This document shows, piece by piece, positions 18,077 through 61,894 of a stretch of 64,000 nucleotides of DNA. The notes beneath the pieces were generated by a model that saw nothing but the letters and a program-made list of their open reading frames with translations, did no database searches and had not been told where the DNA came from. Within the stretch, counting starts at the first letter, position 1, and every line of letters starts with the position of its first letter. Source of the stretch: Octopus vulgaris (lineage: Eukaryota); contig OX597832.1 in the NCBI GenBank assembly GCA_951406725.2, positions 1,178,001 to 1,242,000 of the forward strand, in the 5' to 3' direction. A program made the translations under genes and the position numbers.

Positions 18077-18264
18077 TCACAGATGAAGTACAAGTAAAAT
18101 ATATGTCAACAATAATAAATTAAATGGTAAATTTCTTCTGGAACTATTACAACGATTTTCCTCACAAAAGCAATAGTTGATTTTAACTCCATATGGGTTG
18201 CTGTAAAGATGGCATCCTAGAAGTTTTCCTGGTGTTACAGGGTCATCCAGATTAATTGATGGGT
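18077..18264 (-). CDS. Host gene terminal coding exon: end of the Ly6/uPAR domain plus GPI signal
   Basis: Acceptor ttcttttacttttag, phase 1. Translates DPSINLDDPVTPGKLLGCHLYSNPYGVKINYCFCEENRCNSSRRNLPFNLLLLTYILLVLHL*. Confidence 0.9.
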
Positions 18265-19229
18265 CTAAAAGTAAAAGAATAAATGAACTTAAAAACAGAT
18301 ACTATGTATGCATGTGTGTGTGTATTTTTTTCACATGTACCCATTCACAGCAAAAGTGTTAAAAGTATAATTTAAAAGGCACTTACAAACATGAAAAAAG
18401 GGAAATGAACTGCTGCTAAACATGTTTCAAAAAGTAAATACACCCAACTGAAAAGGATTAAGCAAATAAATTGCTTCCCCAAAGGTAAACTGGTAGAAAA
18501 AGAAAAGAAAGCACAACAAATAATACAACAGTTGGTGTGACTCCAAAACTATTCACAAAAACATGCTTAGCCACTACAAATAAACATAGAAACCTAAACT
18601 TGTTATTCCACATACCACTATTATTGAATATTAGAAGTTCTTTACAACTTAATAACATAGGTATAATTCTTTACCTATGAAACGAGAGCAGAGTTCATAA
18701 AAATATCTCTAAAGATTGCTGAAGAACAAAATATCTCAAATAAATTAAATATATATCTCTCTATAAGGAAAAGAAAAACATTTTAAAAAATCACATGGAA
18801 ATTTAAAATGAAATAAAATTTTCCACAAAATGAAAGGATACAAAGGCCATTGTCTGACAGAAATAGGTCACTTAGTACATCTTGTAGGAAGGCAAGCAAA
18901 GTACTGAATGATGAAGTTTTTTCCTTTATACTGCGAATAACATGTAAATGACAGAACCAGTTGACTTTATTAATATCAGAACTTTGCAAAAGAAAGTGGC
19001 CCAAGTTTCCTGTGAATAAAAAGCTCCCAAAGAAAAAAAAAGTGTCTGTGTGTGTGTTTTCTTTAATGGAAGAAGAAAGAGTAAATGCTAAGAATTACAA
19101 ATTCATAATAAGAGAATAATTTAATGATTTGTAAAGTGGCACTCAACTCAATTTCTGTTCAGTTAGAAACTGCCATACATAGCTGTAGTATCATTGCACT
19201 GAATATTAAAACAGCTACTTAACTAGTCA

Positions 19230-19960
19230 AATGTAGATGTGGTATCTCTGGACTTCGCAAAGGCTTCATCAAAATTGATTATAAGATAATATACTAGAAA
19301 CTAAATGACTCCAGCCGAAATGTAAAATTATGAGAGCAGTTGTACACAATATTCTAAAAGACAGAAATGAAGTTGTCGTGATCTATGATTACTTTTCAAA
19401 ATAACAGCAATCCAGTGTAACATGTCCTAAAGAAGTGTTTTGGATCCATTACAATTGTAAAATATCTTGCAAATTCAGATAACAGTACATCTATCTTAAA
19501 TAGCTATGTTACTGATACAATAAATTTCAAAGACATTTAAGAGTCCCATGATACCAGAATGACATAAATAGGAGAGTTGAACAAAAAAAGCATGTAATTA
19601 AATGTTGAAAAGTTTCAAGTGCTTTGCTATTAACCCTCTGACACATTGCAGACTAGATACACTGGGTCCAGTAGAGATTGAAACCTCAGTCAGAATTTTT
19701 GCCAAACTTGGAAATTATCATTTTCTTATTACTTTAAAACCAGCAGAATTGTGTAGATAACTAACTAGGTGGATCCTGATAGCATTTAGAACAAAAGAGC
19801 AGTTTCATACCAAGTCCATCATTTAATTGAAAATTATTCAATAATCTTATACAACAAAGATTAATTCTATGTACTAACCAAACTACAGGGAATGACTGAT
19901 ACTTTAAGACTCTATTGTAGTGTAAAAGAGAGAAACAGAAAATAACACCAATACTTAAAA
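19230..19960 (+). mobile_element. Old CR1/L2-like LINE RT remnant
   Basis: gtagatgtggtatctctggacttcgcaaaggct reads VDVVSLDFAKA, resembling the VDxxYLDFxKAF motif. The rest is heavily decayed. Confidence 0.5.
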
Positions 19961-21376
19961 GAGCTTGGAAGGATACTGACCATGTGTGACATAGAAAAGT
20001 TATGCAACTGTCCCAAGTGGACCCTACTGCACTGTGCCAAATATTGTCCTATAATTCCTGAATTAGAACTAGATATTGCAAAAGTCTTATGCTCAAAAGG
20101 GCTTCAACTGTTTCCTGTCATCAAAAAGCATAGGAAATATCTATGGAAAAGATGTCAGAATATCAGATAAATTTATATCACTCTAGGTACCAAATATGTA
20201 AACAATAGTATCAAACTTCATCAAATATCAACTATAAAGACAATAACAGCATTATTGAGAACACCTAATTAAAGGAGAAAATAGAAATATGAAAACAAGT
20301 AAAGAATGTGTTTATGCATGCATGCATACATCATACATGCATACACATATACTGGAACAAACTCTGACAAGTTATAATGCTTCCTTGCTTTGAGAGTAAT
20401 TCAACAGAGAGAATAAGTTGGTTTTTATGAATTAAGCATTCATACAGAAAAGCAGAATGTAAGTATTAATACAATACACCAGACATTATAAACATTATAC
20501 ACACACAAATCATATATAAATTATACTATATAAATCAAATGCACAACAATAGAAAAGATGAGCACATCAAGACTCTCATAAAAAGATAACACAAAATGCA
20601 AAACTAATCATAAACTACAAAAACACTTGAATATAAAAAAAAAAAATCAACTATTGAACACCAAACCATAAGTATGTGAACCTGGAAACAAGCTACAAAT
20701 GACAGTTGGAAACTTCATGACTTCTACTGCTACACAAGCAGAATACTCATGCACAAGCTCACCATGCAGATGAGAGAATAAAACAAAATTAGAGAGAGAA
20801 GTTATGAGTGGACAATAAATCCAATGTCTTCCTCAATTGTTCAACTGACCAACTAACCAATGAATCTAAGAAGCCAGAGCTCATAGATTTAAACCTCATT
20901 TTAAAGTTTTCTCAACATGGCTCTGCCTAATGTTTAAAGAACAATCAGTTCAGTAGGGTCCTCAGCTATTGAATAAAAGGATATGCATAATTGTAGAAAC
21001 AACTAATGTAAATCAGAAAATGGAATGAATAAAACTTGGTATAGACAGAAAGTACAAAAGATTAAAAATTTAGAAAAAAAACAACATTGTAATCAGTTGC
21101 TGACAAAACCTGTAGTATACAGTTCATGCAATGTCAACTGCATAATGTTAAATATTGGTGAATGAAACATTGCCTCATTCTAAATGTTTTTATGATATTT
21201 AAAAAAAGGGGGAAAAAACGAACAGGAGGAGATATGTGGGATGGAGAGTTGCTAAAGGGGCCACAGGAAGTGTGAAAAAGATTTCCAGATAAAAAACGCT
21301 ACCAATGTTAATAATTTCTTTACAGTTGAAAAGAAGCTAATTCAACATAGATTAGATTAGATGATTCATATATTTA

Positions 21377-21528
21377 TAGGTGCAGGTGTAGCTGTGTGGT
21401 AAGAAGCTTGCTTCCCAATCACATGATTGTGGGTTCAATCCCACTGCATGACATTTTCTACTATAGCCTTGGGCCAACCAAAGCATTGTGAGTAGCTTTG
21501 GTAGATCAAAACTGAAAGAAGCCTGTCA
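21377..21528 (+). mobile_element. tRNA-derived SINE head
   Basis: Same family as the SINE at 9537. Confidence 0.8.
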
Positions 21529-21810
21529 TATATATATATATATATATATAGGGGTTATGAGAGGTAATGGTGTCATTGAGACCCAAAGGTGTCAGGTAAG
21601 CTGAATAAGTGCTATAGATAGACCATCGTTAAGTTCCAGGTTCAGTGATTATGCAAATAAGGGGTTCAACATAGGTCATATAACAGCGTGTGTATATAAA
21701 AATTTTTTTTTCCCGTAATGAGATAAAACACCAAGGCTGTGTAAATGTTCTAAAATCTACACAGCCTTGGTTTTTTATATCTCATTACAAAAAAAAATTA
21801 TATATATATA

Positions 21811-24800
21811 TCATCATCATCGTTTAACATCCGTTTTCCATGCTAGCATGGGTTGGACGGTTCAACTGGGGTCTGGGAAGCTAGGAGGCTGCACCAGGCT
21901 CCAGTCTGATCTGGCAGTGTTTCTACAGCTGGATGCCCTTCCTAATGCCAACCACTCCATGAGTGTAGTGGGTGCTTTTTAAGTGACAGGCAAGGCTGGA
22001 AACGGCCATGATTGGTTGGTGCTTTTTACGTGCCACCGGCACGGAGGCCAGTCGAGGCGGCACTGGCAACAGCCATGTTCGGATGGATCTTTTTACGTGC
22101 CACTGGCAATGGTATCACAACTACAATTTCCATTGAATTTTTGATTGATTTCGATTTCGCTTGCCTCAACAGGTCTTCACAAGTAGAGTTTTGTGTCCCA
22201 AGGAGGAAAGGTATGCATAAATGGACTGGCTACATCCCATGTAAAGGCCACGGGTTATGGTCTCACTTGTCCTGCCGGGTCTTCTCACGCACAGCATATT
22301 TCCAAAGGTCTCAGTCTCTAGTCATCTCCTCGGTGAGACCTAAAGTTTGAAGGTCGTGCTTCACCACCTCGTCCCAGGTCTTCCTGGATCTACCTCTTCC
22401 ACAGGTTCCCTCAACCGCTAGGGTATGGCACTTTTTCACACACCTATCTTCATCTATTCTCGCCACATGACCATACCAGCGCAAACGTCTCTCTAGCACC
22501 CTACAATTGATGCTTCTTAGGTCCAACTTTTCTCTCGAGGTACTTACACTCTGCCGAGTATGCACACTGACATTACACATCCATCGGATCATACTGGCTT
22601 CATTCCTTGTGAGCTTACACATGTCCTCAACAGTCACAGCCCATGTTTCACTGCCATGTAGCATGGCTGTTCGTACACATGCGTCATACAATCTACCTTT
22701 TACTCTGAGCGAGAGGCCTTTTCTCACCAGCAGAGGTAAGAGCTCTCTGAACTTTGCCCAGGCTATTCTTACTCTAGCAGTTACACATTCAGCACACCTG
22801 CTCCCGCTACTGACTTGGTCACCTAGGTAACGGAAGCTATCAACTACTTCTAGTTTTTCACCCTGGAATGTAGCGGAAGTTGTTCTCTGCACATTTTCAG
22901 TGTTTATTGCTCCTGAGCATCTGCCACATACAAAAACTATCTTCCTAGTTAGCCTTCCTTTGACATTGCTGCACCTCTTATGTGTCCATAGCTTACACTG
23001 GGTACATCTGTTATTGCCTGGAGAACTATGATAAATAGGAGGGGGCTGAGGACTGAACCTTGGTGGACCCCTACCTCTACCCGGAATTCTTCACTGTACT
23101 TGTTGCCAACCCTCACCTTACTTACAGCGTCCCTGTACATGGCTCGCACAGCTCTCACTAGCCATTCATCTATCCCTAGTTTCCTCATTGACCACCAGAT
23201 AAGGGATTGGGTGACTCTGTCAAAGGCTTTCTCCATGTCAACGAAAGCCAGGTACAGAGGTTTATCTTTGGCTAGGTATTTCTCCTGAAGCTGTCTTACC
23301 AGGAATATAGCATCAGTGGTACTTTTCCCTGGCACGAACCCAAACTGCATCTCATCTAAACTGACTCTCTCTCTAATTGATTGGGCTATGACCCTCTCCG
23401 TGACCTTTATTACTTGACCCAGCAGCTTGATACCTCTGTAATTATTTGTATCTAAGGCGTCACCTTTACTTTTGTAGCAGTTGACTATGGTGCTGCTACA
23501 CCAGTCATTGGGTATGACTCCTACGTGTATCACTTGGTTAACTATATGGGTGACTAGGCTATAGCCGACATTGCCAGATATTTTTAGCAACTCTGCAGTG
23601 ATTCCTGATGGGCTGGGGGCTTTCCCTGTCTTCATACTCTTGATTGCTTTATCTACCAAGGTACTGTCAATTCAGATAGCTGGTCCCTCTGTTGGGTCAA
23701 CATTCGGCAGACACTCTTTCTCCCATTCATTCTCTTTATTGAGCAACCTTTCATAGTGGCGTCTCCAAACCTCTCTCTTTGTAGCCTCATTTAGTGCAAG
23801 TGAAACATCATCCATATGGACACATTCTCTCCTATGACATCACGATTCTCTCTCACACACTGTCTTGCAACACGAAATACTTCAAGTCTTTGGTCCTCAC
23901 AGCGCAGAACATTGGCAAATTTTTTCTTATCTGCTTCCCCTCTGGCTAAATAAACCTGTCTCCTAGCTTCTCTCTGGCAGTCTGATACAATTCCCTGCTA
24001 CCTCCATTCTTCCAGCCCCTCCAAGCCTGTTTCTTTTGTTTAATAGCCCTGTCAACCACATTGTTCCACCACCACATTACCTTGGGTCGAGATGGGACTT
24101 TGCACCATCCACAGATCTGGTCAGTGGCTCTCAGCAGGTTGTTCTGTAGAAACCTCCAGTTGTCTTCCACATTATGTGAAGCTATATCCCCTTCTATTTC
24201 AACGAAGGCTTCGAGTAATACGTCTCTAAATCTCTGTCAATTTGCAGGATCTTTAAGCTTCCAGACCCTTCTCCTTCAAGCTGGTCTTCTTCTGGGCATC
24301 AACTTAGCTCTGATCCTGAAGTCGCTAACTACTAATCTATGTTGAGGGGTACATTCTTCACCTAGGAATGTTTTGGCATTTATAAGCAGCCCTCTTTCCT
24401 TTTTTCTGGTGAGGATGTAGTCAATTTGGCTAGTGTGTCTGCCAGAACGGTAGGTGACTAGGTGGGAGGCGGGTTTCCTGAAGTTGGTATTGCAAACCAT
24501 AAGATCATTTCCATCGCAAAACTCCAGCGGCCTGGTTCCCTCCTCATTGCGAAAACCCAAACCATAGCCTCTATGTATGCCATGGAAGCCCCCGACATGT
24601 TGACCAACATGTCCATTGAAGTCACCATCCACAAAGAGAAGGTCTCTGTCATTTGTCAACGAAGTAGTCTGCAATAGGGTGTCATAGAATCGGTCTTTCT
24701 GCACCTCTTGTAGCCCCGGTTGAGGGGCATAGGCCGAGATAATGGTAGCTGACCTATGGTGAAGCACTAATCTAATCTTAAGTACTCTGTCACATACTCT

Positions 24801-25345
24801 GACTACCTCGATTACCTTATCAACCCATTTCTCCGCAAGAAATATACCCACGCCCCTGACCCCATCAGTGCTCCCTGCCCAGAAAATCTTGTACCTGTGT
24901 TCTTTGCCTGTAAGGAACTTAGCAGAACCTCCTCTCCACCTTACTTCTTGGATGCAGCACAAATCTACATGTCTCCGTTCAAGCATCTCAACAATCTCAC
25001 CAGACCTACCTTTCAGTGTGCCAACGTTGAGTGTGCCAACTCTGAGGGTGTGGGAGGTGTGGGCCTGTGAGACCCTGGGATGAGGGACAGCAGTGTCATG
25101 TACCTGAAAAGAAAGCTTGCATTTGGCAGAATTCATAAAGAAACACTAGACTACAACCTACATACACTACACCATTTTTATGCGCTAAATGATCAAATGA
25201 ACCCTACATAGGGGTGTAGGTAGCATTTGGCCCTTAGAAGTGTTCGCGGGAGGTAGAGAAGGAAGACATAGGTTAGTAACTTCCGGTTAAAGGTGGAGGG
25301 GGTGCGAGGGCGAAACAGCAAGTTTAGACTAGAGCATCGTCTTCT
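21811..25345 (-). mobile_element. Near full-length RTE LINE (APE endonuclease plus RT), disrupted
   Basis: APE motifs GTLNVGT...CIQE...AYAP...GDFN...IDY; RT motifs KAP, QFGF, FVDMEKAFD and GVHQGSVLSPLLF; C-terminal RLRWYGH; (GAT)n tail. An internal deletion removes the YADD region. Confidence 0.95.
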
Positions 25346-25897: not shown

Positions 25898-25966
<69 letters not shown>

Positions 25967-26150
25967 TGTATGTATGCGGGTGAATATGTCTCTGTGTTCA
26001 TGTGTGTGTGGGTGCATGCATGTGTATGAATGTGAATGTGCATGTACATATACATGTTTGCATGCATACAGAATGCATAAGCACCACACCAACCATGCCA
26101 GGCCACACAAATCCACATCCCTTTTATATGCACATATACCCACATGCCCC

Positions 26151-29100
26151 TGTAACAGGATCTGGAATTGGTATCACTGAAGGGGTGTCCGATCCGATCC
26201 CACCACATTCAATTTAGTTAAATATAACAGACGAAGTCAGGTTATCTGGGAAAGACAGCAAATGTTGTTTTATTACTCGTGATGGTGTTGATCTGGTGTG
26301 CCTATTTCTGAGGGGGACCGACAGCTGTATCTGTTGTGCTGCTTCTTGTAGGCTGGTCGAAGTGGTTCGATGTGTCCGCTGCTAAGTCGATGCGTAGTTC
26401 TCAGAAACTTCTAATGCACGTCTGTTCACGAGCGCTGTTGGGACCAGAGAGAGTGAGTGAGTGGACTGTGCCTTAGGGGGTCAGTTTCCCGCACATGTGC
26501 ATGGGGAAGACTTCCGGTGGCCACCCGGAAGTAGTCCCATTCTGCGCATGCGCGCTGAACCTTACACAGTAGCATCACTACATGGCTCCCCCTCGAGTGT
26601 GGAAGTACGAAAACAAGAAAATTTGTAGTGGTGCTGCAGAAAAACAGATGGCTTGCCGATCCCCCAGAAGATTTGGTACACAATATGATACAAAAAACAA
26701 GAAATTTGAAAGAAAGAAAGTTAAATATAAATTGTCTTTGAAAGTTTCTTGGGCCAATGCACTGTTCTGCCCGATCTTGTAATATACGGTGTGCTCAGGG
26801 CACCCGTTGACGGCGAAGGTGGTGTTGTGGGAGCCGGTGAAGGCAAAGGTGTCTGTGCAGGTGAAGGTGTTGTTAAAGGTGCATAGGTGGGTGAGGCAAG
26901 GTTGTCATCAAAAGATGAAGACATCTCAAAGTATGCTTTCTTCAGTCGGTCCATGGAAACGGTCTCCGAATGACCATTTATTTCAATGGTGAAAACCTTA
27001 GGTGTGCGAGAAAGCACAAGGAAAAGTCCTTTAAAGGGAGAAACAAGTGGTCCCTTGACAGAGTCGTCCCGAACAAAAACATGCGACCAAGTGTCCATAT
27101 CCGGTGGGAGATGGAATGGTGGAGATTGTTTCCTGGGAACCATGGGTGGAAGATTCGAAAAATAGGAACGCAGTCTGGCGACATAGGTCGCCGGATCATG
27201 GGGCTGGGAAGTGTCTGGCACCAACATCGTACCAGGCAATGCCAGTGTGGTACCATACAGTAGCTCTGCAGAAGAAAACCCCAGGTCTGCCTTGACAGCA
27301 GTGCGACAACCGAGAAGCACAATGGGCAGAAACTCAATCCAGGACTGTGGATCCGAGGAGGCACGAAGAGCGGCCTTGAGCTGTCTTTGGAACCGTTCAA
27401 CTAATCCATTAGACGCTGGATGATAGCTGGTAGTGTGAATATGATGCACACCTAAAATGCGCGACAATTCGCGAAATAGCGAAGCTTCAAACTGACGTCC
27501 ATGATCAGTAGTCAATCTGGACGGAACTCCGAAACGGGAAATCCAGTTCGAAACGAAGGCTCGCGCAACAGTCTCAGCAGAAATGTCTGCTATTGGAATG
27601 GCTTCTGGCCAGCGGGAAAAACGATCGACACAAGTTAACAGATAAGAAAACCAGATCGATGTGGACATGGCAAAAACGGCCCTCCGTAGGGGGAAAATGT
27701 CCAAGCGGGGCACGAACGTGCCGTTGAATCTTGGACTGTTGACACTTGGAGCAGGTGCGTGTCCAAGAAGTAATAGTGGGACACATATTCAGCCAGAAAA
27801 ACCGAGCTTAAGGGTGGCAGCGATGCCAGGATGTGATAAGGAGTGCAGTACTTCAAACACTGAGCGTTGATGATTCTCAGGCACGAGTGGCCTGGGAGAA
27901 CCAGTGGAAGTATCACAAAGAATGGTGCCTTCGGCTGACGGAAACGGACGGTAGGAAAACTGGCAACAAGAGAACTTGGGAGAAGTTAAATCTAACGACG
28001 CCAAAGGTGGCTGCTCCTGCGAGATGGCAGTTAAGTCGATAGCAGCAGGAGACGAAAGGGCGCAAACTGGAAGGCGAGAGAGAGCGTCAGCAGGAACGTT
28101 CTCCTTTCCAGGTATGTGTCGAATGTTACTAGTGAATTGAGAGATAAAATCCAGGTGCCGGAAAGCACGAGGCAAGAGTTTGTCCGTTTTTGAACACAGG
28201 GCAAACGTAAGGGGCTTGTGATCCGTATAGATCACAAAATCTCGCCCTTCAAGTTGATGCTGGAAATGACGAACCGATAGATAGATCGCTAGGAGCTCAC
28301 GATCAAAGGTGCTGTATCGTCGTTCAGCTGGTTGCAGTTGGCGGGAAAAGAAAGCCAGAGGTCGAATATGATTATCCACTGTGTGTTGTAACATAGTGCC
28401 AATCGTAGTGTCCGATGCGTCTAGAGTCAAAGAGAGAGAAGCACCAGGAACCGGATGTGCAAGCAAAGAAACAGAAGCCAGCTCCTTAATGAACTCAAAG
28501 GCTGTCAGTGCCTCAACAGAGAGGGTAACTTGACCGTCCTTTCTAGGAGTGTCCTTTAATAGCCTGTGAGAGGAAGTAGCTTATCTGCACAACCGGGAAT
28601 AAAACGTCAGTAGAAATTGATCATCCCTAGATAATGCCTGAGCTGGCGCAAGAAAGTGGGAGGTGCGATGCGTTGAATGGCATCGACCTTTGATGACAGA
28701 GGGCTGATTCCACTCGAATCAATCAAAAAAATCAAGAAAATCTAGAGAAGAGCGTCCGAAAACACACTTGTCGGGATTTATACGTATACTATAAGCGCGA
28801 AGATGCTGAAAAAGCTGAGAAAGGTGCTGGAGATGATTTTCATGTGTGTCGCTCGCAATGAGTATATCATCGACATAGGCAAACACAAAATCAAGACTGT
28901 GGACAACCTCATCAATGAAACGCTGGAAAGTGCTGGTAGCATTCCGCAAACCGAAACTCAATACAAAAGCTCAAAACACCCAAAAGGGGTAGTGATTGCA
29001 GTTTTCGGAACATCGGCTGGGTTGACCGGTATTTGATGGTACGCGTGTATAAGGTCGACCTTCGAAAAAATGGTGCAACCATGGAGATTTGCCGTAAAGT

Positions 29101-31373
29101 CCTGTAGAATTCTGATTGGATACTTGTCGGCTATTGTTACGGCATTGAGGCGTCGATAGTCTCCTACCGGGCGAAAATCAGACTCGTCCTTTCGCGCTAA
29201 ATGAAGGGGAGACGCCCATGGGCTGGTGGAGGGGCGTATAAGGCCAAGTTGAAGCATGTGCTCAAACTCGGCCCTAGCCGCTTTTAGTTGGTCAGGCGCA
29301 AGGCGCCGTGGGCGCGAAAATACAGGCGGCCCAGTGGTGGTGATAAAATGGAGGGTCGAGTGGGTAGGCTTTTCTGGTTGAAAGGCAATGTCCACTAGCT
29401 CCGGAAACGAAGCCAAAAGAGAGTGAAAAGCGTCTCCAGAGGTGGCAACAAAGAATGTCGGGCTAAGGACCGCATCGGTGGAACTCCCAGTGAGCGATGA
29501 GAGTGACGTCGTGCTGTCAAGAAGCCTCCGACGCCTGACATCCACCAATAGATTAAACCTATCCAAGAAATCAGCGCCGAGAATAGGATGCAGGATGTCA
29601 GCGATGACGAAAACCCATTGAAAATCTCGACGAAGGTTGATGTCGAGGCGCAGCGAAATCTGACCGAAGGTGGTTATAGGAGACGAGTCAATGGCATGCA
29701 AGACAATTGAAGAGTGCTTGGGCTTGTCTGCAATCAGACAAAGGGGCCAGATGCTGCAACAAGAGCCGGTGTCCACCATGAAGAATTTCTTCGACACCAG
29801 ATCTTTTACAAAGAACGCACGATTTTTGGGAAACGAGACGGAAGAAGGTGACGTGCTCACCTCCTCCGGATTTAGTTTCCCGAGGGCTGAAAAGTGCACG
29901 GCTGGGTACACCGTTCTGCCTTTTCAGCAGAGCCACTGCGACTACAACTGCGTGGTCGACGCCCGATCGCACGGCACAGATCATCAATTCGCCGTGTGAG
30001 CGCAGCGAGCCGCTCGGCTAATGAATTATGCATCGGAGAAACTGTCGGAGGGGGCTCTGTACATGCGCACAGGCCTCGCGATGGAGATGGTTTCGGAAAT
30101 TCCAATATTTTGTCTGCCATCGTGGCAATCTGGTCTACTGACACAGACTCCAGTGCCGTGGCCAACATTGTCTGCATGTGGGCAGGCAACCTGGAGAAGA
30201 AAATCCTCCGTAAGAGCGGGGCGTCTGCTGCGTTCCCGCTCAGCTCCCTTAGGTGGCACAGGAACTGGGATGGAGTCCTGTATCCCAACTGTTCCTCGGC
30301 CATCAGCTCCTTAAAATTACTCTCCTCCGACCGCATGTTGCGGTGGAGGATTTCGGCTCTTACGGACGCGTATGTGGCGTCCGGGTGGGGACTTATTATG
30401 AGATCCCTGACCGATGTGGCGAGTCGGGGATGCAAACTTGAATATAGCAGATGCAACTGCTGCTGTGGAGGAACGGCATGTGCGTCAAAATGCGATTCCA
30501 CCTGGGCAAACCACAGACCTGCATCCCATGTGAATAAAGGCAAACCTGATGCAGCCATGTTTGTCCGAAAAAACGCCTGTCAGAAAGGGGGCAGAAGGAA
30601 GAACGAGAAGTGGAGAACACGTGAAACCGACAAAGCAAATAAAAAAAAAATCGTGTTTTGTGTACTCGTGTGTGTGTGTGTGTGTGTGTGTGTGCACCTC
30701 GTGGGTAGTAAAGAATAGGTGTGTGTGTGTGCACACAAAGGAAAAACAAAGGCTACAGAAAAGAAAAAATGATGTGTGTGTGTGTTTTTTTTTTTTCAGT
30801 GTACTGAGTGCGATGGATAAACTTTTGTTTGTACGAAAAAATGAAAGTGAAAACTGAGTGTTCAGCGTGCTAACTGGCAAAACCTGTTCGCTGCGTCTTC
30901 TGTTCTTTCTTTTTTTCTTTTTTTTTACTCGGGGTCACCAATTATAACAGGATCTGGAATCGGTATCACTGAAGGGGTGTCCGATCCGATTCCGTCACAT
31001 TCAATTTAGTTAAATATAACAGACGAAGTCAGGTTATCTGGGAAAGACAGCAAATGTTGTTTTATTACTTGTGATGGTGTTGATCTGGTGTGCCTATTTC
31101 TGAGGGGGACCGACAGCCGTATCTGTTGTACTGCTTCTTGTAGGCTGGTCGAAGTGGTTCGATGTGTCCACTGCTAAGTCGATGCATAGTTCTCAGAGAC
31201 TTCTAATGCACGTCTGTTCACGAGCGCTGTTGGGGCCAGAGAGAGTGAGTGAGTGGACTGTGCCTTAGGGGTCAGTTTCCCGCACATGCGCATGGGGAAG
31301 ACTTCCGGTGGCCACCCGGAAGTAGTCCCATTCTGCGCATGCACGCTGAACCTTACACAGTAGCATCACTACA
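26151..31373 (-). mobile_element. Full-length Ty3/Gypsy provirus (family A): gag-PR-RT-RNaseH-IN, frameshifted
   Basis: LTRs at 26151-26582 and 30943-31373, TSD CCCC, tRNA-Trp PBS and PPT GAGGGGGAGCCA. ORFs are gag 29872-30558, PR/RT 28958-29911, RNase H 27789-28466 and IN 26721-27713. Confidence 0.97.
29840..29881 (-). promoter_or_regulatory. Putative -1 ribosomal frameshift signal at the gag/pol junction
   Basis: Slippery heptamer G GGA AAC immediately before the gag TAA, followed by the hairpin GGAGGAGGTGA-GCACG-TCACCTTCTTCC. Confidence 0.75.
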
Positions 31374-33685: not shown

Positions 33686-33754
33686 CTTTAATTCTGCGGA
33701 TTAGACTGAGATAGGATCTTTGAGAATAGCATGTCCTCTGGGCTGTATTATAAG
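33686..33754 (-). CDS. Host gene internal exon (middle of the Ly6/uPAR domain)
   Basis: Acceptor tttctctttgtatag and donor gtaagc; 69 nt, phase 1-1. Translates SYNTAQRTCYSQRSYLSLIRRIK. Confidence 0.85.
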
Positions 33755-34719
33755 CTATACAAAGAGAAATGGAAAATGCTGAATTTATTGCAGTAATAAT
33801 TAGCTAAAAATATCAAAATTCTAAGTATTCAAAAGTGGTTAATGGCAGAATTAATGGACCATTAGACAACATATCTTACAGCTTTTACATATATTCCTTT
33901 ATGCTGAGATCATATGTGTTTTTTTATACTTCTTGGTCTAATACAATAAATCTGCCAACTATTTTCCACCTCCAGAATATTATTAGAGGCTAGATGACTA
34001 TGATAGGAATTAACACAATACTTTCTCTACACAAAAAATTGAAATATTTCACACCTGCCCATCCTCTAAAAATTAGTATACAATTGATTTTCTTTAATAT
34101 AGTGTATTTTTATAAAATAAGTTGAAGTCTATTACATTTAATATATGTCTACTTATGATAGAATGAACAGAATGATATAAATAGCTCTGAACCGTTCTGA
34201 CCATCGTCCTCATAACTTTAACATATATTTTCCTATACTGGTATGAGTAACAAGGGTCTAAAACAACAACATAACTTCATGCATTTCATCCCTCACAACC
34301 TTGAGAGATGGAATATAAATACTCATTTCCAAGTTTTCTCAGATTACTTACTATTACCTCACTACTAGCTAATACCATTAATTATCCTGCATGCATCATC
34401 AATACCTATGCATTTATCACTACAGCATGTTGTCCTTTTTATTAATGGCATTATTGTGCCCTTATCAGTTATATATTTTCAACACCAATAGATGCTAATT
34501 CATGTGTGAACACATATATATGTATACACAGCCATGCTGGAGCACTGCCTTGAAGAATTTCAGTTAAATGAATTGATCCAAGTACTTTTTTCTTTTAAGC
34601 CTGGTACTTTGCCAAACCACTAAGTTATGGGGATGTAAACACACCAACACCAGTTGTCAAGCAGTGGTAGGGGACAAACACAAACACACACACACATATA
34701 TATATATATATATCCAATT

Positions 34720-37140
34720 TTTCTCTTAAATCATTTGCTGTCTTACATGCACACCAACATTACCTATCCGGTGGAGCATGCTGGCTTCATTCCTTTCAAA
34801 CCTTCACATGTCCTCTGTAGTCATAGCCTACGTTTCACTGCCATGCAGCATAGCTGTACATATATGGGTATCATACAATCTTTTTCTCTGAGGGAGAAGT
34901 CCTTTGTTACTAACAAAAGTAATAGCTCTCTGAACTTTGCCCACTCCATTATTATTCTAGCAATTACACTTTCAGAACTTCCTCCTCCACTGCTAACTTG
35001 GATGCCTAGATAAAAGAAGCTATCTACTACACTAAGGAGCCCCTTGGAAATTTGTTGAAGTCTGTTATCTATAAACTCTTAGTACTTATTGTACCTGCAC
35101 ATCTGCCACACACACAAAGACTACTTTCTCTGTTAATTATCTTGTGACATTGCTGCACCTCTTATGTGTCCATAGCTTGCACTGGGTACACCATATGGAG
35201 TTTCTACCAACACCTTTTTGTACATATTGTGGAGGGCCATCTCTCTGAAAAGATTAGTGATTTATCTGTTTCCCTACTTACTAGGAATTTGGTCTTTGCT
35301 AAATTAATTCTAAGGCCCTTTGGCTCCAGACCTTGCTCCCACACCTGAAATTTCCTCTCTAGTTCAGGTAGTGACTCTTTGTACACTAACTTCATTGCTA
35401 ACCTTTATTTTACTGACATCATCTAAGTACGTGGCTTGTACAGTTGACACCAACCACTCATCTATCCCTAGCTTGTGCATTGACCTTCAGATGAGGGAGT
35501 GAGAGTCTCTGTTAAAGGCTTTCTCCATTTAAAAAAAAGCCAAGTACTAAATGCTTCTTCTGCAGTTGCCTTGCCAGGAAGACTGTCAGTAGTGCTTCTC
35601 CCCGGCATGAAACTGAACTGCATCTCATCTAGGCTAACTCTCTTCCTGATTTATTGAGCTATGATCCTCTCTATAACTTTCATGACGTGGTCTAGCAATT
35701 TTATACCTCTGTAATTATTTCTGTCAAAGGCATCACCTTTACCTTTGTAACAGTTGACTACAGCTACACTAGTTGTTGGGTATGACTCCCTTGTGAACAA
35801 CCTTAATTTTGTGTGTGTATGTTATCATCATCATCATCATTATTGTTTAACATCCACTTTTCATGCTGGCACGAGTTGGATGGTTTGACTGAGAACTGGT
35901 AAGCTGCACCAGTCTGATTTGGCAAGGTTTCTACAGCTGAAAGCCCTTCCTAATACCACTCTGTGAGTTTGGTGGGTGCTTTTTACGTGCCACCAGCAAG
36001 GGTGCCAGTCAGGTGGCACTGATATTGGCTCAAATGGTGCTTCTTACATGCCACCGGCGTGGGTGCTAGTAAGACAGCACTGGATTGGCCATGCTTGAAT
36101 GGTGCCTTTTATGTGCCACAGGCTTGGGTGCCAGTCAGGCAGCACTAGCATTGGCCATGCTCAAATGGTGCTTTTTATATGTCACAAGCATGTGTACTAG
36201 TCAGGCGGCACTGGCATTGATTTCACTTGGTTCAACAGGTCTTCACAAGCACAGCATATTGCCTGACGATTGGAAGGTGCTTTTAAATGGGCCAGTTATG
36301 ATTGTAATCAGTCATGATTATGATCTCACCTGGCTTTTCGGGTCTTCTCAAACATGGCATATCTCCATAGGTCGTCTCAATTGTTTGTTATTGCTTCTGT
36401 GAGACTCAACGTTCGAAGGTTGTGCTTCACCACCTCATCCTATGTCTTCCAGGGTTTACCTCTTCCACAAGTTTCCTCCACCTTTAGGGTGTGACACATC
36501 CTCATCCATATGCATCACATGACCTGCCAGCGCAGTCATCTCTCTTGCACACACCATCTGATGCTTCTTATGTCCAACTTTTCTCTCAGGATGCTTACAC
36601 TTTGTTGTGCATGCACACTGACATTACACATCCAGCGGAGTATACTAGCTTCATTTCTTTCAAGTCTCTGCATATCCTCAGCAGTCACACCCCATGTTTC
36701 ACTGCCGTGTAGCATGGCTGTTCACACACAGACATCAAACAGTCTACCTTTCACATTCAGCGAGAGGTCCTTTGTTACCAGCAGAGGTAGGATCTCTCTG
36801 AACTTTGCCCAAGCCTATTCTTATTCTAGCAGCTATGCTCCCAGAGTATCCACTTCCACTACTCACCTGGTCACCTAGGTAACACAAGCTATCAACTACT
36901 TCTAGTTTTTTCCCCCTGGTATGTGATGGAATCTGTTTTCTGTACATTTTCAGTGCTTATTGCCCTTGTGCATCTGCCACACACAAAAACTATCTTCCCA
37001 GTTAACCTTCTGTTGATATTGCTGCACCTCTTATGTGTCCACAGCTTATACAGGGTACATCTTATGAGTTTCTACCTATGCCTTTTCCATAGATTGAGCA
37101 GGGTCATCTACCTGAAGGGATTTATGATTTGTCCTTCTTC
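34720..37140 (-). mobile_element. Two decayed RTE LINE fragments (about 34720-35790 and 35823-37140)
   Basis: Homologous to 21811-23600, including KKLEVVDSLCYLGDQVSSG, with a (GAT)n tail at 35823. Confidence 0.85.
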
Positions 37141-42678: not shown

Positions 42679-42900
42679 ATATATCCCATTGTTTGGCACA
42701 AATGTAGCAACCGGCAGCCATAGTGAAGACATCTCGGTCCCAATCAAAATCTTCAAGAGAACAGCTAGCACACTCAACACACTCAATGCCTTCATAACTT
42801 TTCTCTAGGTCTTGACCTGGTCTTGATAAAGAACTTCCTGGAACACTGACTTGGAGATCCCATGTCCATTGAAATAAAGATGTAACACCATCATTCCATC
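42679..42900 (-). CDS. Host gene internal exon (linker plus start of the Ly6/uPAR domain)
   Basis: Acceptor ttttaaatttcag and donor gtaagt; 222 nt, phase 1-1. Translates GWNDGVTSLFQWTWDLQVSVPGSSLSRPGQDLEKSYEGIECVECASCSLEDFDWDRDVFTMAAGCYICAKQWDI. Confidence 0.9.
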
Positions 42901-52048: not shown

Positions 52049-52101
<53 letters not shown>

Positions 52102-53374: not shown

Positions 53375-56300
53375 TGTGGGATGACGTCAGCAGCTGGGGA
53401 GCTGACCGGAACTTGGGGCTGACCGGAAGAGGAAGGGGCAGGAGTGACGCGGGCGCAAGCAGGAAAGGATTGGGACTTTTCGATCGAGGTAGTCAAAGGA
53501 GTCAGACGCGTCAGCACGTTGTTAAGGTAGAGGAGAAGCAGCTGCTATTTCTAGTGTTCGGATCGAGCTGTGTTGAAGGGTCCATTACCACTGAGTGGTC
53601 TCCGTTGAACGAAGAGAAGCTAGGTGTCCATATTTCGGCGCTCCATATAAGACGTCACCACGATGGCAGCGAAAATCAGGATCGCCAGCGACATTATCAG
53701 ATTCTTTAATGGTGAGGGCAATGTTGTGGCCTGGATTCGTAAAATCAGGCTGGTGGCAAGACTGCAAGGCATAAGCGATGTGGCAAGTCTTATGGTGCTG
53801 TATTTGGAAGGAAAGCAGATGGACGAGGAAGAACGTCTGAGCGAGGAGAAGATCGAGCAACGCCTGAGAGATGCTTACACCGAGTGTGAGTATACAGCTT
53901 TTGTTAAGCTGGGTACGATTAGATGGACGGGAGGACAGGTGAACGAATACGTGGCAGAAGTGCGAAGGTTAGCCACGCTGGCTGGTTTTACAGGAGAAGG
54001 GCTGGAGAGAGCAGTGCGACTGGCATTCGTAAATGGGTTTTCCGACGACGTAGGGATTCGCCTACAACAATTGCCCGGGAGTAAAAAGATGGTGCTGAGT
54101 GAACTTGTGACTCAAACCCGAGTGTTGTCGTGACACACTGGGCGGAAGGCGATAGTGATGGCAGTAACAGAGGTGCATAAAGACGGCCGGAGAAAGACGT
54201 GAAGAAGCCTACTGTGTAACGACAGCGGCCAGTCTCAGGTCAGTGTTTTAGATGTCAGGGGTCACACAGGGCGAGGGAGTGTACACAACCGGGGCCCGTT
54301 TGCTATCGATGCAGGCAGACAGAGCACATCGCCTGCGATTGCGACCAGGGAAACGACCATGGGGAAATTGCTGCCTCTCGAACTTTCCCCGCAAGTAGAG
54401 GCGATTTTGGAGATGCAGCCCTTAATTGATATCGGGGCCGAGGGGAAGACTTCAAGGCATTCATGGATACGGGTTGCACGACCACCCTTGTGACTTCAAG
54501 AGTGGCGAAGAAATGGATAGGGGCAAGTAGCGTCCGGGGAGTCGACGGCAGCGAAATCCGTTGCAAAGGCAACAGCAAGGTAGAGATAGTGGTGTGAGGC
54601 ATGACGCTAAGGCTGCAGGTAATTGTGGCTGAATGCGTGATAGATGGGGTTGATGTGGTGATGGGGATGGACGCCATTAACCGCCTCAGTGGCGTCAGTA
54701 TTGTGGGAGATGAGGTCACATTCGCCAGAGAGAGCAGAGCTCTGCGAGGGATTGCGCCGCTTACACCATCGAAGACAAAGATTTTCAGGCGGCGTTCGAT
54801 GGTCAGCGGTGGACAATAGAGTGGCAATGGAAAGACAAGCCCCCGATGCTGAAAAACAGCGTGAGCTGCTACCAGCATACCCTGAAAGGTCATGCCAGGG
54901 TCGAGTTTGAAGACAAGGTGGAGAGGTGGATTGAGGAAGGGGTCCTTGTCCCTTGGGAGGAGGAGGTAGTGGGCAGAGTGCTACCCCTGATGGTGGTGGT
55001 GCAGCCTACAAAGGGAAAAGTCAGACCGGTGCTGGACTTCAGGGAGCTAAACCAACATCATGTCACACGGGAGGTGAGGCGACGGAAGTTTGTGGCGAGA
55101 CGTTACGTGCGTGGAGACAGTCGATCAAGGCAGCGACGATTGTCGACTTGAAATCGGCATACTTGCAGCTCCGTGTAAGCGACAAACTGTGGCGATATCA
55201 GCTGGTGCGGTACAAAGGCTGGACGTACTGTTTAACCAGGCTGGGTTGCAGACTGAATTCCGTTCCGAAGATCATGGCGGCAGTGCTTAAGTCCGTCCTA
55301 GGGAAAGACGGCAAGATTAGAAAGGCCACCAGTTCCTACATAGATAACATTTTGGTGGACGAAACTGTAGTGCCAGCCAACGAGGTAGTTAGACATCTGG
55401 AGAAGTTCGGACTTATTGTGAAGCCACCAGAGTCGATGGAAGGGGGAGCTGCACTGGGGCTGAAGCTGCAAAGAGATAGATTGGGTGAGTTGGTGTTCTG
55501 GAGAGGGAATGAAATCCCAGAGCTGAGTTCCAGTGTCAGCAGGAGAGAGCTGTTCTCGGTGCGTGGGATGTTGGTCGGTCACTACCTGATCGCTAGATGG
55601 CTGTGCACAGCGTGCAGTTACACCAAGAGATGAGCAGAGGAGGAGAGTTGGGGCGAGAAGGTGGGAGAAGGGACGGTGGTGATGATGCAGGAAATCCTAG
55701 AGAGGACGAAAGCGGAAGACTCGCTCAGGGGGAACTGGTATGTGCCCAAGACGGAATGCGGGACCGTCTGGTGTGATGCTAGCAGTATAGCAATAGGGGT
55801 TGCGTTGGCGATCGAAGGCGTTTCGGAAAGCAGATGACTTCAACCACATCAATGTTGCCGAATTAGATGCGGTGCTAAACGGGGTGAACTTGGCCCTGAA
55901 ATGGGGGCTTCACTGTGCTTGGCTGGGTAAGATCGGTGATCACCTGTGAAAGGAGAGTTCGGACTGAAGCTGAACGTGGTTTTCGTGCCTTCGGAGAAAA
56001 ACAGGGTGGACGCACTGACCAGGGTGAAAAGGGCGTGGTTGGAGGAGCCGGAGGAGGCTCGGAAAGGGATAGCTGTGGCATGTCGGTTGGATGACTCTGA
56101 ACTGAAGAGACAGCATGCTATGCATCACTCTGGTGAAGAAAATTGATGCTGATGTCACTAGGAGAAGCATCCGGAAAGTGGTCGAGAGATGCGACAGGTG
56201 TCATGCGGGCATGAGCAAGGAAATCTTTCGGTGGAGCACAACTGGAAAAGGCTAGCTGTGGATATGACGCACTACCGTCAGGGAATGTATCTCTCCACGG

Positions 56301-57298
56301 TCGACTGCGGGCCGGCTGGCCATTTGGAGGGAGTTGAGAACGAGTAATGCTGATGAGATTGCGCAGATTTTGAATGGGATATTTTTAGAGAGAGGTCCCA
56401 TGGAAGAACTGCTAATGGACAACGGGGCGGCATTTCATTCGGAAGCATTGAGGGATATCCTCGACCGGTGGAAAGTGCGTCGCTTGTTCAGAGCAGCATA
56501 TAGGCCGAGCGGTAACGGGATCATAGAGAGGCACCATCGAACAGTCAAGACCATAGCAGAAAGAGGACACATTTCGCCGCTGGAAGCAGTTTTTTGGTAC
56601 AACTTGTCTCCCCGATCTGGACAAGCTGAAGAATCTGTGCCGCAGAGAGCTGTATTTAAATATGAATGGAGGCACCCGAGTAAAGCACCGGAGGGCCACG
56701 AGGAAGAGAAGGGACCTGCTTGCGTGAAAATAGGGGAGGAAGTCTGGGTTAAGCCACTGAAGGCGCACTGTACATCTCAATGGAACAGAGGAACGGTGAC
56801 GGCGGTCAATTCCAGAAACAATGTCTCCATGGATGGAATGCCGCGACATGTCTTGGACCTACGCAGGATTGTCGCTTCATCGGAAGACGATTATGGGGAG
56901 GGGGAGAACGAGGTGCCTAGCCTGAGAAGATCTCAACGCGCAAGGCGCTCTCCCAGTTGGATGGTGGACTACGACGTGGAGTAGAGAGATTGTGATCTTT
57001 AAGATCAGGGTGGCGTGTGGGATGATGTCAGCAGCTGGGGAGCTGACCAGAACTTGGGGCTGACTGGAAGAGGAAGGAGCAGGAGTGACGTGCGCGCAGG
57101 CAGGGCAGGATTGGGCCTTTTCGATTGAGGTAGCCGAAGGAGTCAGACGTGTGAGCACGTTGTTATGGTAGGGGAGAAGCAGCTGCTATTTCTAGTGTTC
57201 GGGTCAGGCTGCGTTGAAGGGTCCATTACCACTGAGCGATCTCCGTCAAGTGAAGAGAACGTAGGTGTTCTTATTTCGAATCTCTCGTATACACCACA
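53375..57298 (+). mobile_element. Compact Ty3/Gypsy element (family B), degenerate
   Basis: LTRs at 53375-53662 and 57016-57298; flanks ctgac/atgac; PBS TGGCAGCG. Contains gag with CCHC remnants, protease FMDTGCT, RT (VDLKSAYLQ, YIDN), RNase H (WCDAS) and IN (MDNG...NGIIER). Confidence 0.93.
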
Positions 57299-57657
57299 AT
57301 GACAACTTCTTGTAACAAAGTCCACATAATGTAGAATGCACATGTATTTATACAATGTAACCATTGGCAATCGGTCACTCTAATATTATTGCTTCTCTAA
57401 TAAATGGAGGGAGAAAAACAAAGAAAAATGAATGGGTTATTTCCTTTTGGCCGTTAAAGGAAAATAGGTCGGTTACATCTGGACCCCTTCTAGGGGCCCT
57501 AGCCATCCAATTATAAATTTTTACTAAACTACAATGAGCCTAGTAGCAAACTGGATGTAGGTTTAACATGTATAAAAAGTTTCATGAAGATTCGTTAATG
57601 GGTGTAGATGGCAACTTGACACTAACAGACAACCAAACAAATTGCCATTTATGTGTG

Positions 57658-57723
<66 letters not shown>

Positions 57724-57786
57724 AATATATAAAATTGAATAATTTAGGGTCAACAGGAAGGAATCCAGTTTGACAGTTATTTTTTA

Positions 57787-57892
57787 ATCATGACAAATGT
57801 TTCCACACAACATAGTTCTTCATACATACAGGTATTTGATTATGCTACTGTTTACCTGTATAATGGGATCTAGTTGTATTTCTTCAGATGAT
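57787..57892 (-). ncRNA. Type I hammerhead with an about 77-nt extended stem II
   Basis: ATCAT-CTGAAGA-(long hairpin)-GAAACATTTGTC-ATGAT. Confidence 0.8.
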
Positions 57893-58105
57893 ATTCAATT
57901 GCTGTCTCTGTTAGTAAAAAGCCTCTGACTTCGATGCTAGCACATCCATCTACTTTGTTTGAATTTACTACTCATGGCAGGCACGTTGAAGCACATTAAC
58001 AGCAACCAGAATGAAACTGCCAGCATCTACTAAATTCAAACAAGGCAGATGGATGTGCTAGCATCAAAGTCAGAGGTTTTTTACTAACAGAGACAGCAAT
58101 TGAAT

Positions 58106-58211
58106 ATCACCTGAAGAAATACAAATGGATCTCATTATACAGATAAACAGTTATATAATCAAAAACTTGGACATATGAAGAACTATGTTGTGTGGAAATA
58201 TTTGTCATGAT
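58106..58211 (+). ncRNA. Hammerhead copy (partly mutated)
   Basis: ATCAC-CTGAAGA...GAAATATTTGTC-ATGAT, with a mismatch in stem I and a wobble pair in stem III. Confidence 0.65.
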
Positions 58212-58682
58212 TAAAAAATAACTGTCAAACTGGATTCCTTCCTGTTGTCCCTAAATTATTCAATTTTATTTTCACACGACGAATGCCAAAATCTAGATTT
58301 GGAAGTATATCATAATACTACCAGCTATCTGGTAATTCTAAGGGTGAACAAGCTCTATACTGTACTCTGCTATGTTCCTAATGGAATACACCTTAAATAA
58401 CACTGACAAAAACTAGAAGTCGCTTTTTTTTGAATCAGAGTACTACAAAGGGTCAAAGGATGGAAAAACTAAATCTAGACTTCTCACTAAAGGACATCTC
58501 CATTCCAACTAAAAATGAATATTTCAGATAATAAAATTTCACATGTGCAGCCCAACATAAGGAACAGATCAAAAATTAACAGCATGCAGAATGAAACTGC
58601 CAGCATCTACTAAATTCAAACAAAGCAGATGAATATGCTAGCATTAAAGTTGGAAGTTTTTTTACAGAGACAGCAATTGAAT

Positions 58683-58788
58683 ATCATCTGAAGAAATACA
58701 AATGGATCCCATTATACAGGTAAACAGTAGCATAATCAAATACCTGTATGTATGAAGAACTATGTTGTGCGGAAACATTTGTCATGAT
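58683..58788 (+). ncRNA. Type I hammerhead with an extended stem II
   Basis: ATCAT-CTGAAGA...GAAACATTTGTC-ATGAT; the GUC triplet ends at 58783. Confidence 0.8.
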
Positions 58789-58958
58789 TAAAAAATAACT
58801 GCCCAACCGAATTCCTTCCTATTGACTCTAACTTATTCAATTTTATGACGAATGCCAAAATCTAGACTTGGAAGTATATCATAATACTACCAGCTATTTG
58901 GTAATTCTAAGGGTGAATGAGCTCTACACTGTACTCTGCTACGTCCCTAACAAAATAA

Positions 58959-59025
<67 letters not shown>

Positions 59026-59109
59026 AAATATGTGAGAGTTAGGTATATTTGAGAAAAGAATGACTTCACTGGTTGATCTAATCAGTTCGAATTATTATTT
59101 TTTAACTTT

Positions 59110-59912
59110 TTAATAATGAGCAACTGGTAAAGCTTAGGTACACAAATTGCAACAATGTTTGGGTACCACATGAGTTGAGTGAGAAGAACCTTTTGGATTG
59201 CATTTCCATCTGTGATTCGCTTTATAAATGGAATGAAAACATGCCTTTTTTAAAGCAAATTGTGAGAGGTGACGAGAAATGGATTATCTACCGAAATGTT
59301 CAGTGAAAGCGATCCTGGAGTAAGCGACATGAGCCACCCTTAGCCACTCCAAAAGCAGGTCTTCACCCTAAAAAAAGTCTTGCTTTGTGTCTGGTGGGAT
59401 TGGAAAGGAATTCTGTACTATGAGCTTCTCCCAAGTAACCAGACAATTAATTCTGAGAAATACTGCACACAACTGGACGAGTTAAAAGCAGCAATTCAAG
59501 AGAAATGTCCAGAATTGGCCAACAGGAGGAGTGTTGTTATCCAACATGATAATGCAAGATCGCACATTTCTTTGGGAACCAGACAAAAATTGCTGCAGCT
59601 CAGCTGGGATGTGTTACCCCACCCTCCATATTCACCAGATATTCCTCCTTCGGATTTCCACTTATTCAGGTCTCTGCAGAATAGTCTTAATGGTAAAAAT
59701 TTCAATTCCTTGGATGACGTAAAAAAATACCATGATGAATTCTTTGCCATGAAACCATCTCAATTCTGGGAAGAGGATATTTTCAAGTTAAAGGAAGGAT
59801 GGAGAATCATTGTGCAACAAAATGGTTCATATTTGGTTGATTAAAAATGTAATGGCAAGTATTTATTGACCATTTTCTTTCCTTTAAAAATCGGCACAAA
59901 CTTTCCGGACAT
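59110..59912 (+). mobile_element. Mariner fragment (3' two-thirds)
   Basis: Motifs WVPHELSE, GDEKWI, QHDNAR and HPPYSPDIPPSDFHLF. Confidence 0.92.
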
Positions 59913-61672
59913 TATTTTTTACCTGTTTCAGCCATTAGACTGTGGCCACCACCTTGAAAAATTTTAGCATGAACAAAGTGACCCCAGTATTTTTTAAGCC
60001 TGGTTTTTATTCTCTGTCTCTTTTATTGAACTGCTAAGCTATGGAGATGTTTTAAACACACCAACACCAGCTGATCCTGCCACTGTAGAATGTTGACAAA
60101 CTTCTTACTCTCTGTTGCTGCCATTGTGAAACAATTTTCTTGACTTCCAGTAATTTGTTGCCTATGCTATTACTTCTCCCTAAGGCGTCTCCTTTACCTT
60201 CCTGCACAACATGATGGTCACCTAACTTCCTGTCTCAGTTACCTGTTATAGTTCTCTGTTGGCTCCTTTCTCGCAGTTTTTTCAGCAAGTTGACTGAAAG
60301 AACTTCCAAATGTCATCTATGCTAAATGTTGCTATCTCTTCTACCATCTTGTCAAATGTTTCACTTAGTACTTCTCTAAATTTCTGACTCTTCAATGGAC
60401 CTTTAAGCATTACTTGTGTAGACACAAAAAATGTTAATGAAGGGTAAAGGAGAATTTGAAATATTTACACATTTATAAGTGTCAGGAAATAAGCTGTAGT
60501 GTTATTAAAACCATGCCATGTATTTGCCTTGGTATGAGCTAACATGTATTCTACAGCACTTGCTACTGCTTTCACAAATATTAATAAATTATTTGGGTTT
60601 ATAAGGTTTAAATGTAGCATGTGTTATACTGCTGTGCAGATTATGAACAATGTGTGATGTCTGTAAGCTAACTGAAACTCAGATTGACATAAGTGACTCT
60701 ATATATTTAACTAAGAATAACAATTTTATTGATAAATATTAGCATATACAAATCTAGAGGATAAGCCTGTAGTTGTCACTAGGATGCTAGTCTACAGTGT
60801 CAGTAGTCTGTATTCCACAAGAGTGCCTGAATTTGGTTTCTACAATGTTAAGTGTGTAACAGAAAAAAAAGTCTTTCTGGAGAGAACAGTAATCAGTAGA
60901 ATATAGCAAAGAACTCTAATGCTCCCAGAGTTCTGAGTCTATATTAGCCTCATTTTGATCATACCACCCCTTTTGTATACTCATTATTTACATTTACAAT
61001 GCAATACTTGACACCTCCAATTTTGAAATAGAAAGCAGATGTCCCTCTGTATTTATCACCAAATGGTGTAAAAACAAAAGAAACCATTCATGCTTCTGTA
61101 TATTGAAATATTTTTACTTTCAATACTAGCTTTGATGTAAAGACAGCTAAGTGTATGATAAAAAGATAACCTCATTCTATAATATCTAAGTGAGGAAACA
61201 ATGTGAACATTCCTCACTGATGCTTTCAGAGCCTTCTACAAGATCTGTACTTCTCACTGTTTTCATACCTCTGATTTTGCATAGTGTTGAATATATGAAA
61301 AACATTTCTCAGACAGAACAGTAATATATTGTAGATAACATTCTCAGCAAAGTGCTTCAAAAAATTATATATGCAAGAGTTTTATTATTTATTAATCTCA
61401 CTATGATCACAGCAACTCTATTGTACATTACCATTTGCATTAACTTTACAATACTTGGCACTCTCAATTTTAAGATACATCTACTATTCCTTTGCACTTA
61501 CCATTGGCCAGCACTTCAATATATATGCTAGAATTTCTATGATCATATCTGTTTTTACTGCCGTAATTGATTTTTTAGCACCACAAATACAAACCTGATT
61601 CTCTACAGAATAGGCTATCTTTGAATGACAATATTAAATAAACAGAAAATAAAAGAAAATATTTGAACCTAC

Positions 61673-61894
61673 CACCAGGATTAAATCCTCCACGTTGAGA
61701 GTTGACAGGACTTTTCCATTCATGCTGCCAAATTTTGATAGAAAATCCTTCGCGTTTCTCATTACTTGAACTTTCAATTTTGAAACGAACAGTCAAATAG
61801 TTACGACTGGTTTTAAATGATGTTTCTAAAGGCAATGAACTTCCACAAAGTCCTTCCATTGGAGTAAGGATGTTAGCATTGTCAACTCGTGGAC
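61673..61894 (-). CDS. Host gene exon: C-terminal half of a CUB-like domain
   Basis: Acceptor tttttgttttatgaaaaag and donor gtaggt; 222 nt, phase 1-1. Translates GPRVDNANILTPMEGLCGSSLPLETSFKTSRNYLTVRFKIESSSNEKREGFSIKIWQHEWKSPVNSQRGGFNPG, matching the CUB pattern LCG...S.N.L.V.F...GF. Confidence 0.85.

Follow-up and report, generated by a model that had tools for sequence, protein, structure and literature searches.

The question raised by this locus is what protein is encoded by four minus-strand exons spread over positions 18077-61894 of the window (the 64,000-nucleotide stretch of Octopus vulgaris DNA analysed here, G000:C19:1178001-1242000), and what that protein might do. When spliced, the four exons form one open frame ending in a TGA stop at 18077; as the first-pass annotation had it, each exon is preceded by an AG acceptor, a GT donor follows all but the last, and all junctions are in phase 1. 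The frame equals residues 106-338 of the annotated 338-residue protein CAI9736462.1, and each of the two Cys patterns tested has a single occurrence in the six frames of the window, so the four-exon frame is not a product of chance. The gene had been described as hidden but is already annotated in GenBank/RefSeq, with the full product of 338 residues appearing as O. vulgaris CAI9736462.1 and O. sinensis XP_029648188.1, both annotated as uncharacterised. The 5′ exons expected past the right window edge are two further coding exons at continued coordinates 70883-71134 and 78254-78317, and CAI9736462.1 can be rebuilt exactly from six coding exons with GT-AG introns of 7,119, 8,988, 18,772, 8,924, and 15,421 nt, the last three having been put at ∼18.8, 8.9, and 15.4 kb. 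The CUB domain assigned to the window is present, but only its C-terminal half lies there. The features of the gene are as follows:

G000:C19:1256254-1256317, minus strand, outside the window: coding exon 1 from the ATG; signal peptide, residues 1-22
Before exon 1, minus strand: 5′ UTR of ∼62 nt, the 5′ boundary of exon 1 being placed from an AG only
G000:C19:1248883-1249134, minus strand, outside the window: coding exon 2; N-terminal half of CUB, residues 22-106
61895..64000, minus strand: 3′ part of intron 2, continuing past the right edge
61673..61894 (222 nt), minus strand: coding exon 3; C-terminal half of CUB and start of linker, residues 106-180
42679..42900 (222 nt), minus strand: coding exon 4; conserved linker core (residues 180-203) and LU Cys1-5, residues 180-254
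33686..33754 (69 nt), minus strand: coding exon 5; LU Cys6 and the helix inserted in LU, residues 254-277
18077..18264 (188 nt with the stop), minus strand: coding exon 6; LU Cys7-10, CN end, and GPI-like signal, residues 277-338
14264..18076, minus strand: putative 3′ UTR of ∼3.8 kb, ending near the first AATAAA (14,264)

The extent of the 3′ UTR is estimated from contig sizes and not from an alignment: two transcript contigs of 4,887 and 4,890 nt would end at ∼14,277 if colinear with the genome after exon 5. Only the six exons match in the genome (6 of 30 candidates), which rejects an octopus paralogue or processed copy; O. vulgaris has a single locus and no intron-less copy. No neighbouring CUB or LU genes were seen across 264 kb, and the six QVR-like exon matches in the genome all lie on other contigs. 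Three Quiver-like exon matches fall within 130 kb of one another (G000:C5:49957042-50083940), a probable LU gene cluster elsewhere.

The C-terminal module carries the ten cysteines reported for it (residues 220, 223, 226, 244, 247, 262, 294, 308, 310, and 315), followed by N-S-S and a 22-residue tail, the S-S and the hydrophobic nature of the tail being as reported, and the expected three-finger fold is found in the predicted structure. This is the 8-10-cysteine core ending in C-N that serves as the criterion for the Ly6/uPAR superfamily. Ten cysteines are present in 31/31 full-length rows, and all ten, together with N316, are invariant. The resemblance to Quiver/Sleepless proteins that had been claimed stands as far as the ten cysteines, the C-x-C-x4-C-N end, and the GPI-like tail are concerned, but not at the level of the Pfam family: none of the 22 proteins scanned passes the PF17064 (QVR) cut-off of 27.3 bits, with sub-threshold, near-full-profile matches of 12.1-15.9 bits in four of them. 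The LU model matches a QVR cluster with a structure TM of 0.63. By its predicted fold, the octopus protein is a member of the LU superfamily that lies outside the Quiver family as Pfam defines it. With Quiver/Sleepless, Lynx1, Lynx2/Lypd1, and Lypd6 it shares a ten-Cys domain ending in C-x-C-x4-C-N with a GPI-like tail directly after it, and with the Quiver/Sleepless-type single-LU proteins also the conserved C5-x-K and R-x-C6; unlike the latter, among which the Quiver/Sleepless members are single-domain GPI proteins regulating Shaker or nicotinic receptors, the octopus family carries CUB at its N-terminus, then a linker of 50 residues, and has a Cys spacing of 2-2-17-2-14 and a helical insertion of 20-31 residues between Cys6 and Cys7. 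A GPI-like pattern (i.e., small-residue omega site, spacer, and terminal hydrophobic tail, judged by hydropathy) fits 14/14 tails, and the protein is predicted to be secreted and GPI-anchored; several Mytilus models have an extended C-terminal tail. Pfam matches of the octopus protein to PH_met_RdRP, DUF7626, and BRO1 are sub-threshold and were rejected.

The N-terminal domain has the ∼110-residue beta-sandwich fold of a CUB domain in the prediction. PF00431 does not match the octopus protein (exon 3 alone reaches 13.4 bits against a cut-off of 21.4), and its cut-off is passed by 1/5 orthologues in one set and 14/17 in another. By profile, the nearest CUB relatives are CUB-LDLa proteins (probability 99.5%). 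When 1.84 billion representatives were searched by profile, 125 matched; of these, 28 mid-sized ones were chosen for scanning, and 23 of the 28 are CUB-LDLa proteins. Like Neto/SOL-2, Drosophila Loaf, Culd, and their small relatives, the octopus family has a signal peptide and a distal CUB domain; unlike them, it has an unrelated linker and LU domain where LDLa sits, and most of its members have no cytoplasmic tail. No LDLa module was matched by Pfam in any of the 22 proteins scanned, and, going by domain content, the octopus family is not part of the CUB-LDLa group.

A calcium-binding subset of CUB domains carries a Tyr-Glu-Asp-Asp motif (PMC6829435), the positions of which we placed by profile alignment to cubilin rather than from a metal-bound model. 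In the octopus CUB domain Y63 and D99 are kept, the first acidic site is R90, and the full motif is absent; all three acidic ligands are found in 0/7 cephalopod rows, whereas the motif is complete in 38/47 bivalve and gastropod rows (a set that includes near-duplicates), the other nine having Asn at the third site. The net charge of the linker shifts in the same rows, from −4 to −11 in 47/47 non-cephalopod rows to −2 to +3 in the 7 cephalopod rows. Because the rows are related, the loss of the motif and the charge shift probably reflect a single change along the long stem of the coleoids. The motif loss is specific to cephalopods and offers a ready natural comparison. A divergent orthologue is represented by two exon fragments (P0031 and P0045, longest contig 2,660 nt each). 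Around the second pair of CUB cysteines P0031 is cephalopod-like, but its third calcium Asp is retained, and P0031 could date the loss of the site if its source lineage were placed.

Between the two domains lies the most conserved part of the protein. The linker core (residues 179-203, G-G-W-N-D-G-x4-F-Q-x2-W-x2-Q-x3-P-G) has 11/25 columns conserved at ≥90%, compared with 22/144 in CUB and 17/100 in LU, octopus and non-cephalopod sequences are 47% identical in it, compared with 32% and 34% in the domains, and the motif is present in 54/54 rows. AlphaFold leaves the linker unfolded both with CUB and LU (pLDDT 33-37) and with LU alone (∼38-42). Conservation in a segment that the models leave unfolded suggests a motif that becomes ordered on a partner, although a shallow alignment or a missing ion could also give a conserved-but-unfolded linker. 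A homodimer prediction (residues 23-317, two copies, run without an alignment) scored 0.00 twice and is neutral on binding. That the linker is a cysteine-less LDLa remnant is not supported (the CUB-LDLa profile match ends at residue 163, and the linker has no conserved Cys), nor is the linker modelled as a part of the LU or CUB fold in either prediction, though it may fold with a partner or ion.

Orthologues with the same layout, for which a search was proposed at first pass, are found in three mollusc classes: in cephalopods (Octopus, Argonauta, and Sepia, the last as a model with a broken end), in bivalves (Pinctada, four scallop genera, Mercenaria, Mytilus, oysters, and Tegillarca), and in gastropods (Patella, Gigantopelta, Pomacea, Babylonia, Nucella, Aplysia, Elysia, Plakobranchus, and pulmonates). 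The suggestion that the architecture may be lineage-specific fits the named matches, a few of the 125, in that each of them extending past CUB is molluscan. The O. vulgaris and O. bimaculoides proteins are 95% identical. In a 29-row tree, cephalopods (100/100) and gastropods (100/98) each fall on one side of a branch and bivalves do so weakly (77/75), and the cephalopod stem branch is long. Fragments from genomic contigs that consist of a single exon end at shared profile positions (about 108, 183, and 257), which suggests that the positions of the introns are conserved. As all introns are in phase 1, the origin of the gene would most simply be exon shuffling that joined a CUB domain of the CUB-LDLa class to a Quiver-like LU-GPI gene in a mollusc ancestor. 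Two Saccostrea species have two near-identical models each, which may be haplotypes. One cluster (P0185) is a database chimera of a snail family member and bacterial cytochrome c1, joined at a shared six-residue stretch, an assembly artefact that pulls cytochrome c1 sequences into the cluster.

A literature search by 17 family gene identifiers and by topic, with most subscription journals outside its scope, returned no description of the family, and the supplements of PMC9712504, PMC9699675, and PMC12328594 gave no family match, a blank that carries no information on expression. A 2026 survey of LU proteins covered 387 invertebrate genomes, 25 of them molluscan (Paramonov et al., PMC13719153), and lists Kunitz, C1q, fibrinogen, Ig, MAM, thioredoxin, permease, and 7TM as LU fusion partners. 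The octopus family resembles these fusions as a phylum-restricted combination of LU with another extracellular module, but CUB is not among the listed partners: ‘cub’ occurs 0 times in the main text of the survey and is absent from its Fig. 2 legend. It should be noted that the survey set its threshold at E 100 (database size 81.5 million; PMC13719153), and that the best family score, E 0.027 against 24,736 profiles, scales to ∼89 and is thus just at the threshold, so a family member could be in the survey lists. The combination of CUB, conserved linker, and LU is apparently an undescribed architecture and family. Its LU domain is invisible to Pfam, and databases therefore label the family ‘uncharacterized’ or ‘CUB domain-containing’. 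Aplysia, Lymnaea, Pomacea, oyster, and octopus all offer tractable systems in which to study such a single-copy surface protein, whose motif is invariant and unexplained.

The protein has two domains for interaction but neither an enzyme domain nor a cytoplasmic part, and so must work through a partner. Modulation of membrane receptors is typical of GPI-LU proteins (PMC11595613); among CUB-LDLa proteins, Neto proteins govern glutamate-receptor localisation and activity, and Loaf and Culd act in synaptic targeting and trafficking (PMC8205486). We therefore favour, with confidence that we put at about even, the reading that the protein serves one conserved membrane receptor or ion channel of molluscs as its accessory subunit or co-receptor; a neuronal channel would be the likeliest single class of partner, though a tentative choice when taken by itself. 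Given the layout of signal peptide, CUB, conserved linker, LU, and predicted GPI anchor, the membrane-proximal LU domain would dock from the side onto a protein of the same membrane, in the manner of GPI-LU proteins, and the distal CUB domain would grip an extracellular domain or ligand; in bivalves and most gastropods the grip would use the calcium site, which is incomplete in coleoid cephalopods. The Trp/Gly linker, which is unfolded by itself, would be a third binding element that is ordered on the partner, and the protein would act by altering how the partner is delivered to the surface, clusters, captures ligand, or gates. A more specific version, which we regard as speculative, is a mollusc-wide single-copy subunit that fuses two kinds of channel-tuning module which animals elsewhere deploy apart (a Neto-like CUB and a Sleepless/Lynx-like LU), with a new conserved disordered motif binding the partner; the calcium site would have been lost on the coleoid stem, and the interface thus rewired in those molluscs whose nervous system was rebuilt. 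If the protein is a channel or receptor subunit, it bears on how molluscan receptors behave in native neurons and on their heterologous expression.

The same parts could instead form a surface platform on which a secreted enzyme or ligand is captured, in the way that GPIHBP1 holds lipoprotein lipase and uPAR urokinase; the acidic, disordered linker and LU would hold a secreted basic protein and keep it stable, with CUB giving a second grip. Both structure searches with the LU model ranked GPIHBP1 first, a protein with an acidic disordered region beside its LU domain, and the acidity of the linker throughout the non-cephalopod rows, in a segment left unfolded by AlphaFold, fits such a role. We consider it unlikely, however, as the GPIHBP1 match lies within 1 Z of other three-finger chains, with which it is tied (18% identity over the aligned part and no sign of orthology), and the acidity is gone in cephalopods though the Trp/Gly/Gln motif is kept; GPIHBP1 also has no CUB domain. 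A structural surface role, by analogy with adhesion at epithelial junctions (the Drosophila Ly6 protein Coiled at septate junctions) or synaptic partner matching (Loaf), would draw on the fact that both parent domain families include such members (PMC11595613; PMC8205486) and would suit a single conserved copy with a basic tissue role; it too seems rather unlikely, in that a pan-bilaterian junction role leaves the mollusc restriction among named matches unexplained.

A role in shell, mantle, or radula, exerted through a calcium-binding CUB domain and an acidic linker and partly relaxed in coleoids with the loss of the external shell, would account for the calcium motif and linker acidity being reduced in the same cephalopod rows and for the long cephalopod stem branch. 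This change is probably one event and hence one observation, two shell-less octopuses share an intact gene at 95% identity, the cuttlefish cluster is also without the acidic residues although cuttlefish have a calcified cuttlebone, and sea slugs keep the acidic linker, all of which makes the role improbable. A gamete- or immune-recognition protein, like Bouncer or spermadhesins, is very improbable for a single-copy gene that changes so slowly between octopus species, most recognition genes being fast-evolving or expanded.

The 42679/33754 junction, for which reads had been sought, is joined at the predicted splice sites in contigs of 4/4 runs (4 studies), presumed to be RNA, with 8,924 nt skipped and CT..AC ends; the genome has no intron-less copy. 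Exon 4 is present in 19/24 listed runs, none of them on record as RNA, whose library, tissue, and organism fields are blank or coded. Upstream of exon 4, two contigs have 609-610 nt, which fits either isoform (600 nt with exon 3, 378 without). An annotated isoform, CAI9736461.1 (P0004), skips exon 3 in frame and so lacks half of CUB; the skip leaves unpaired cysteines, and a regulated isoform and annotation noise are both possible. That the CUB and LU exons of O. vulgaris belong to two genes, or that the exon-3-skipped form dominates, so that no main transcript carries both, is a reading for which CAI9736461.1 speaks but to which we attach hardly any weight: the skip is seen in that one protein only among the family proteins profiled, and the fusion is backed indirectly by full-length gene models from O. 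sinensis, O. bimaculoides, and Argonauta and by cephalopod and snail two-domain proteins of 344-351 residues on contigs of only 1.2-4.6 kb, as fits spliced mRNA.

The window also holds mobile elements and a duplicated ORF:

26153-31373, minus strand (host-gene orientation): Gypsy-like LTR retrotransposon in intron 5
15802-17542, plus strand: broken pogo/Tigger-like transposase (HTH_psq, DDE_1)
53651-56984, plus strand (antisense to the host gene): second retroelement in intron 3 (DUF7047, integrase core)
59344-59844: mariner-type transposase fragment
22095-25145, 11962-13342, and 34710-37133: LINE fragments, with endonuclease and RT at 22952-25145
2197-3321 and 3922-5107, minus strand: tandem duplicate ORF, 96% identical over 1.1 kb

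The terminal repeats of the Gypsy-like element (26153-26582 and 30945-31373) are 96.7% identical, and its RT, RNase H, and integrase are in separate, interrupted ORFs; a related copy (88%) lies at 1-1374 and continues past the left edge. The pogo/Tigger-like remnant would sit antisense inside the putative 3.8-kb 3′ UTR. The tandem-duplicate ORF, of up to 455 residues, has no Pfam match and carries a CxxCxxxxHxxxxC knuckle; it resembles a non-LTR ORF1 protein.
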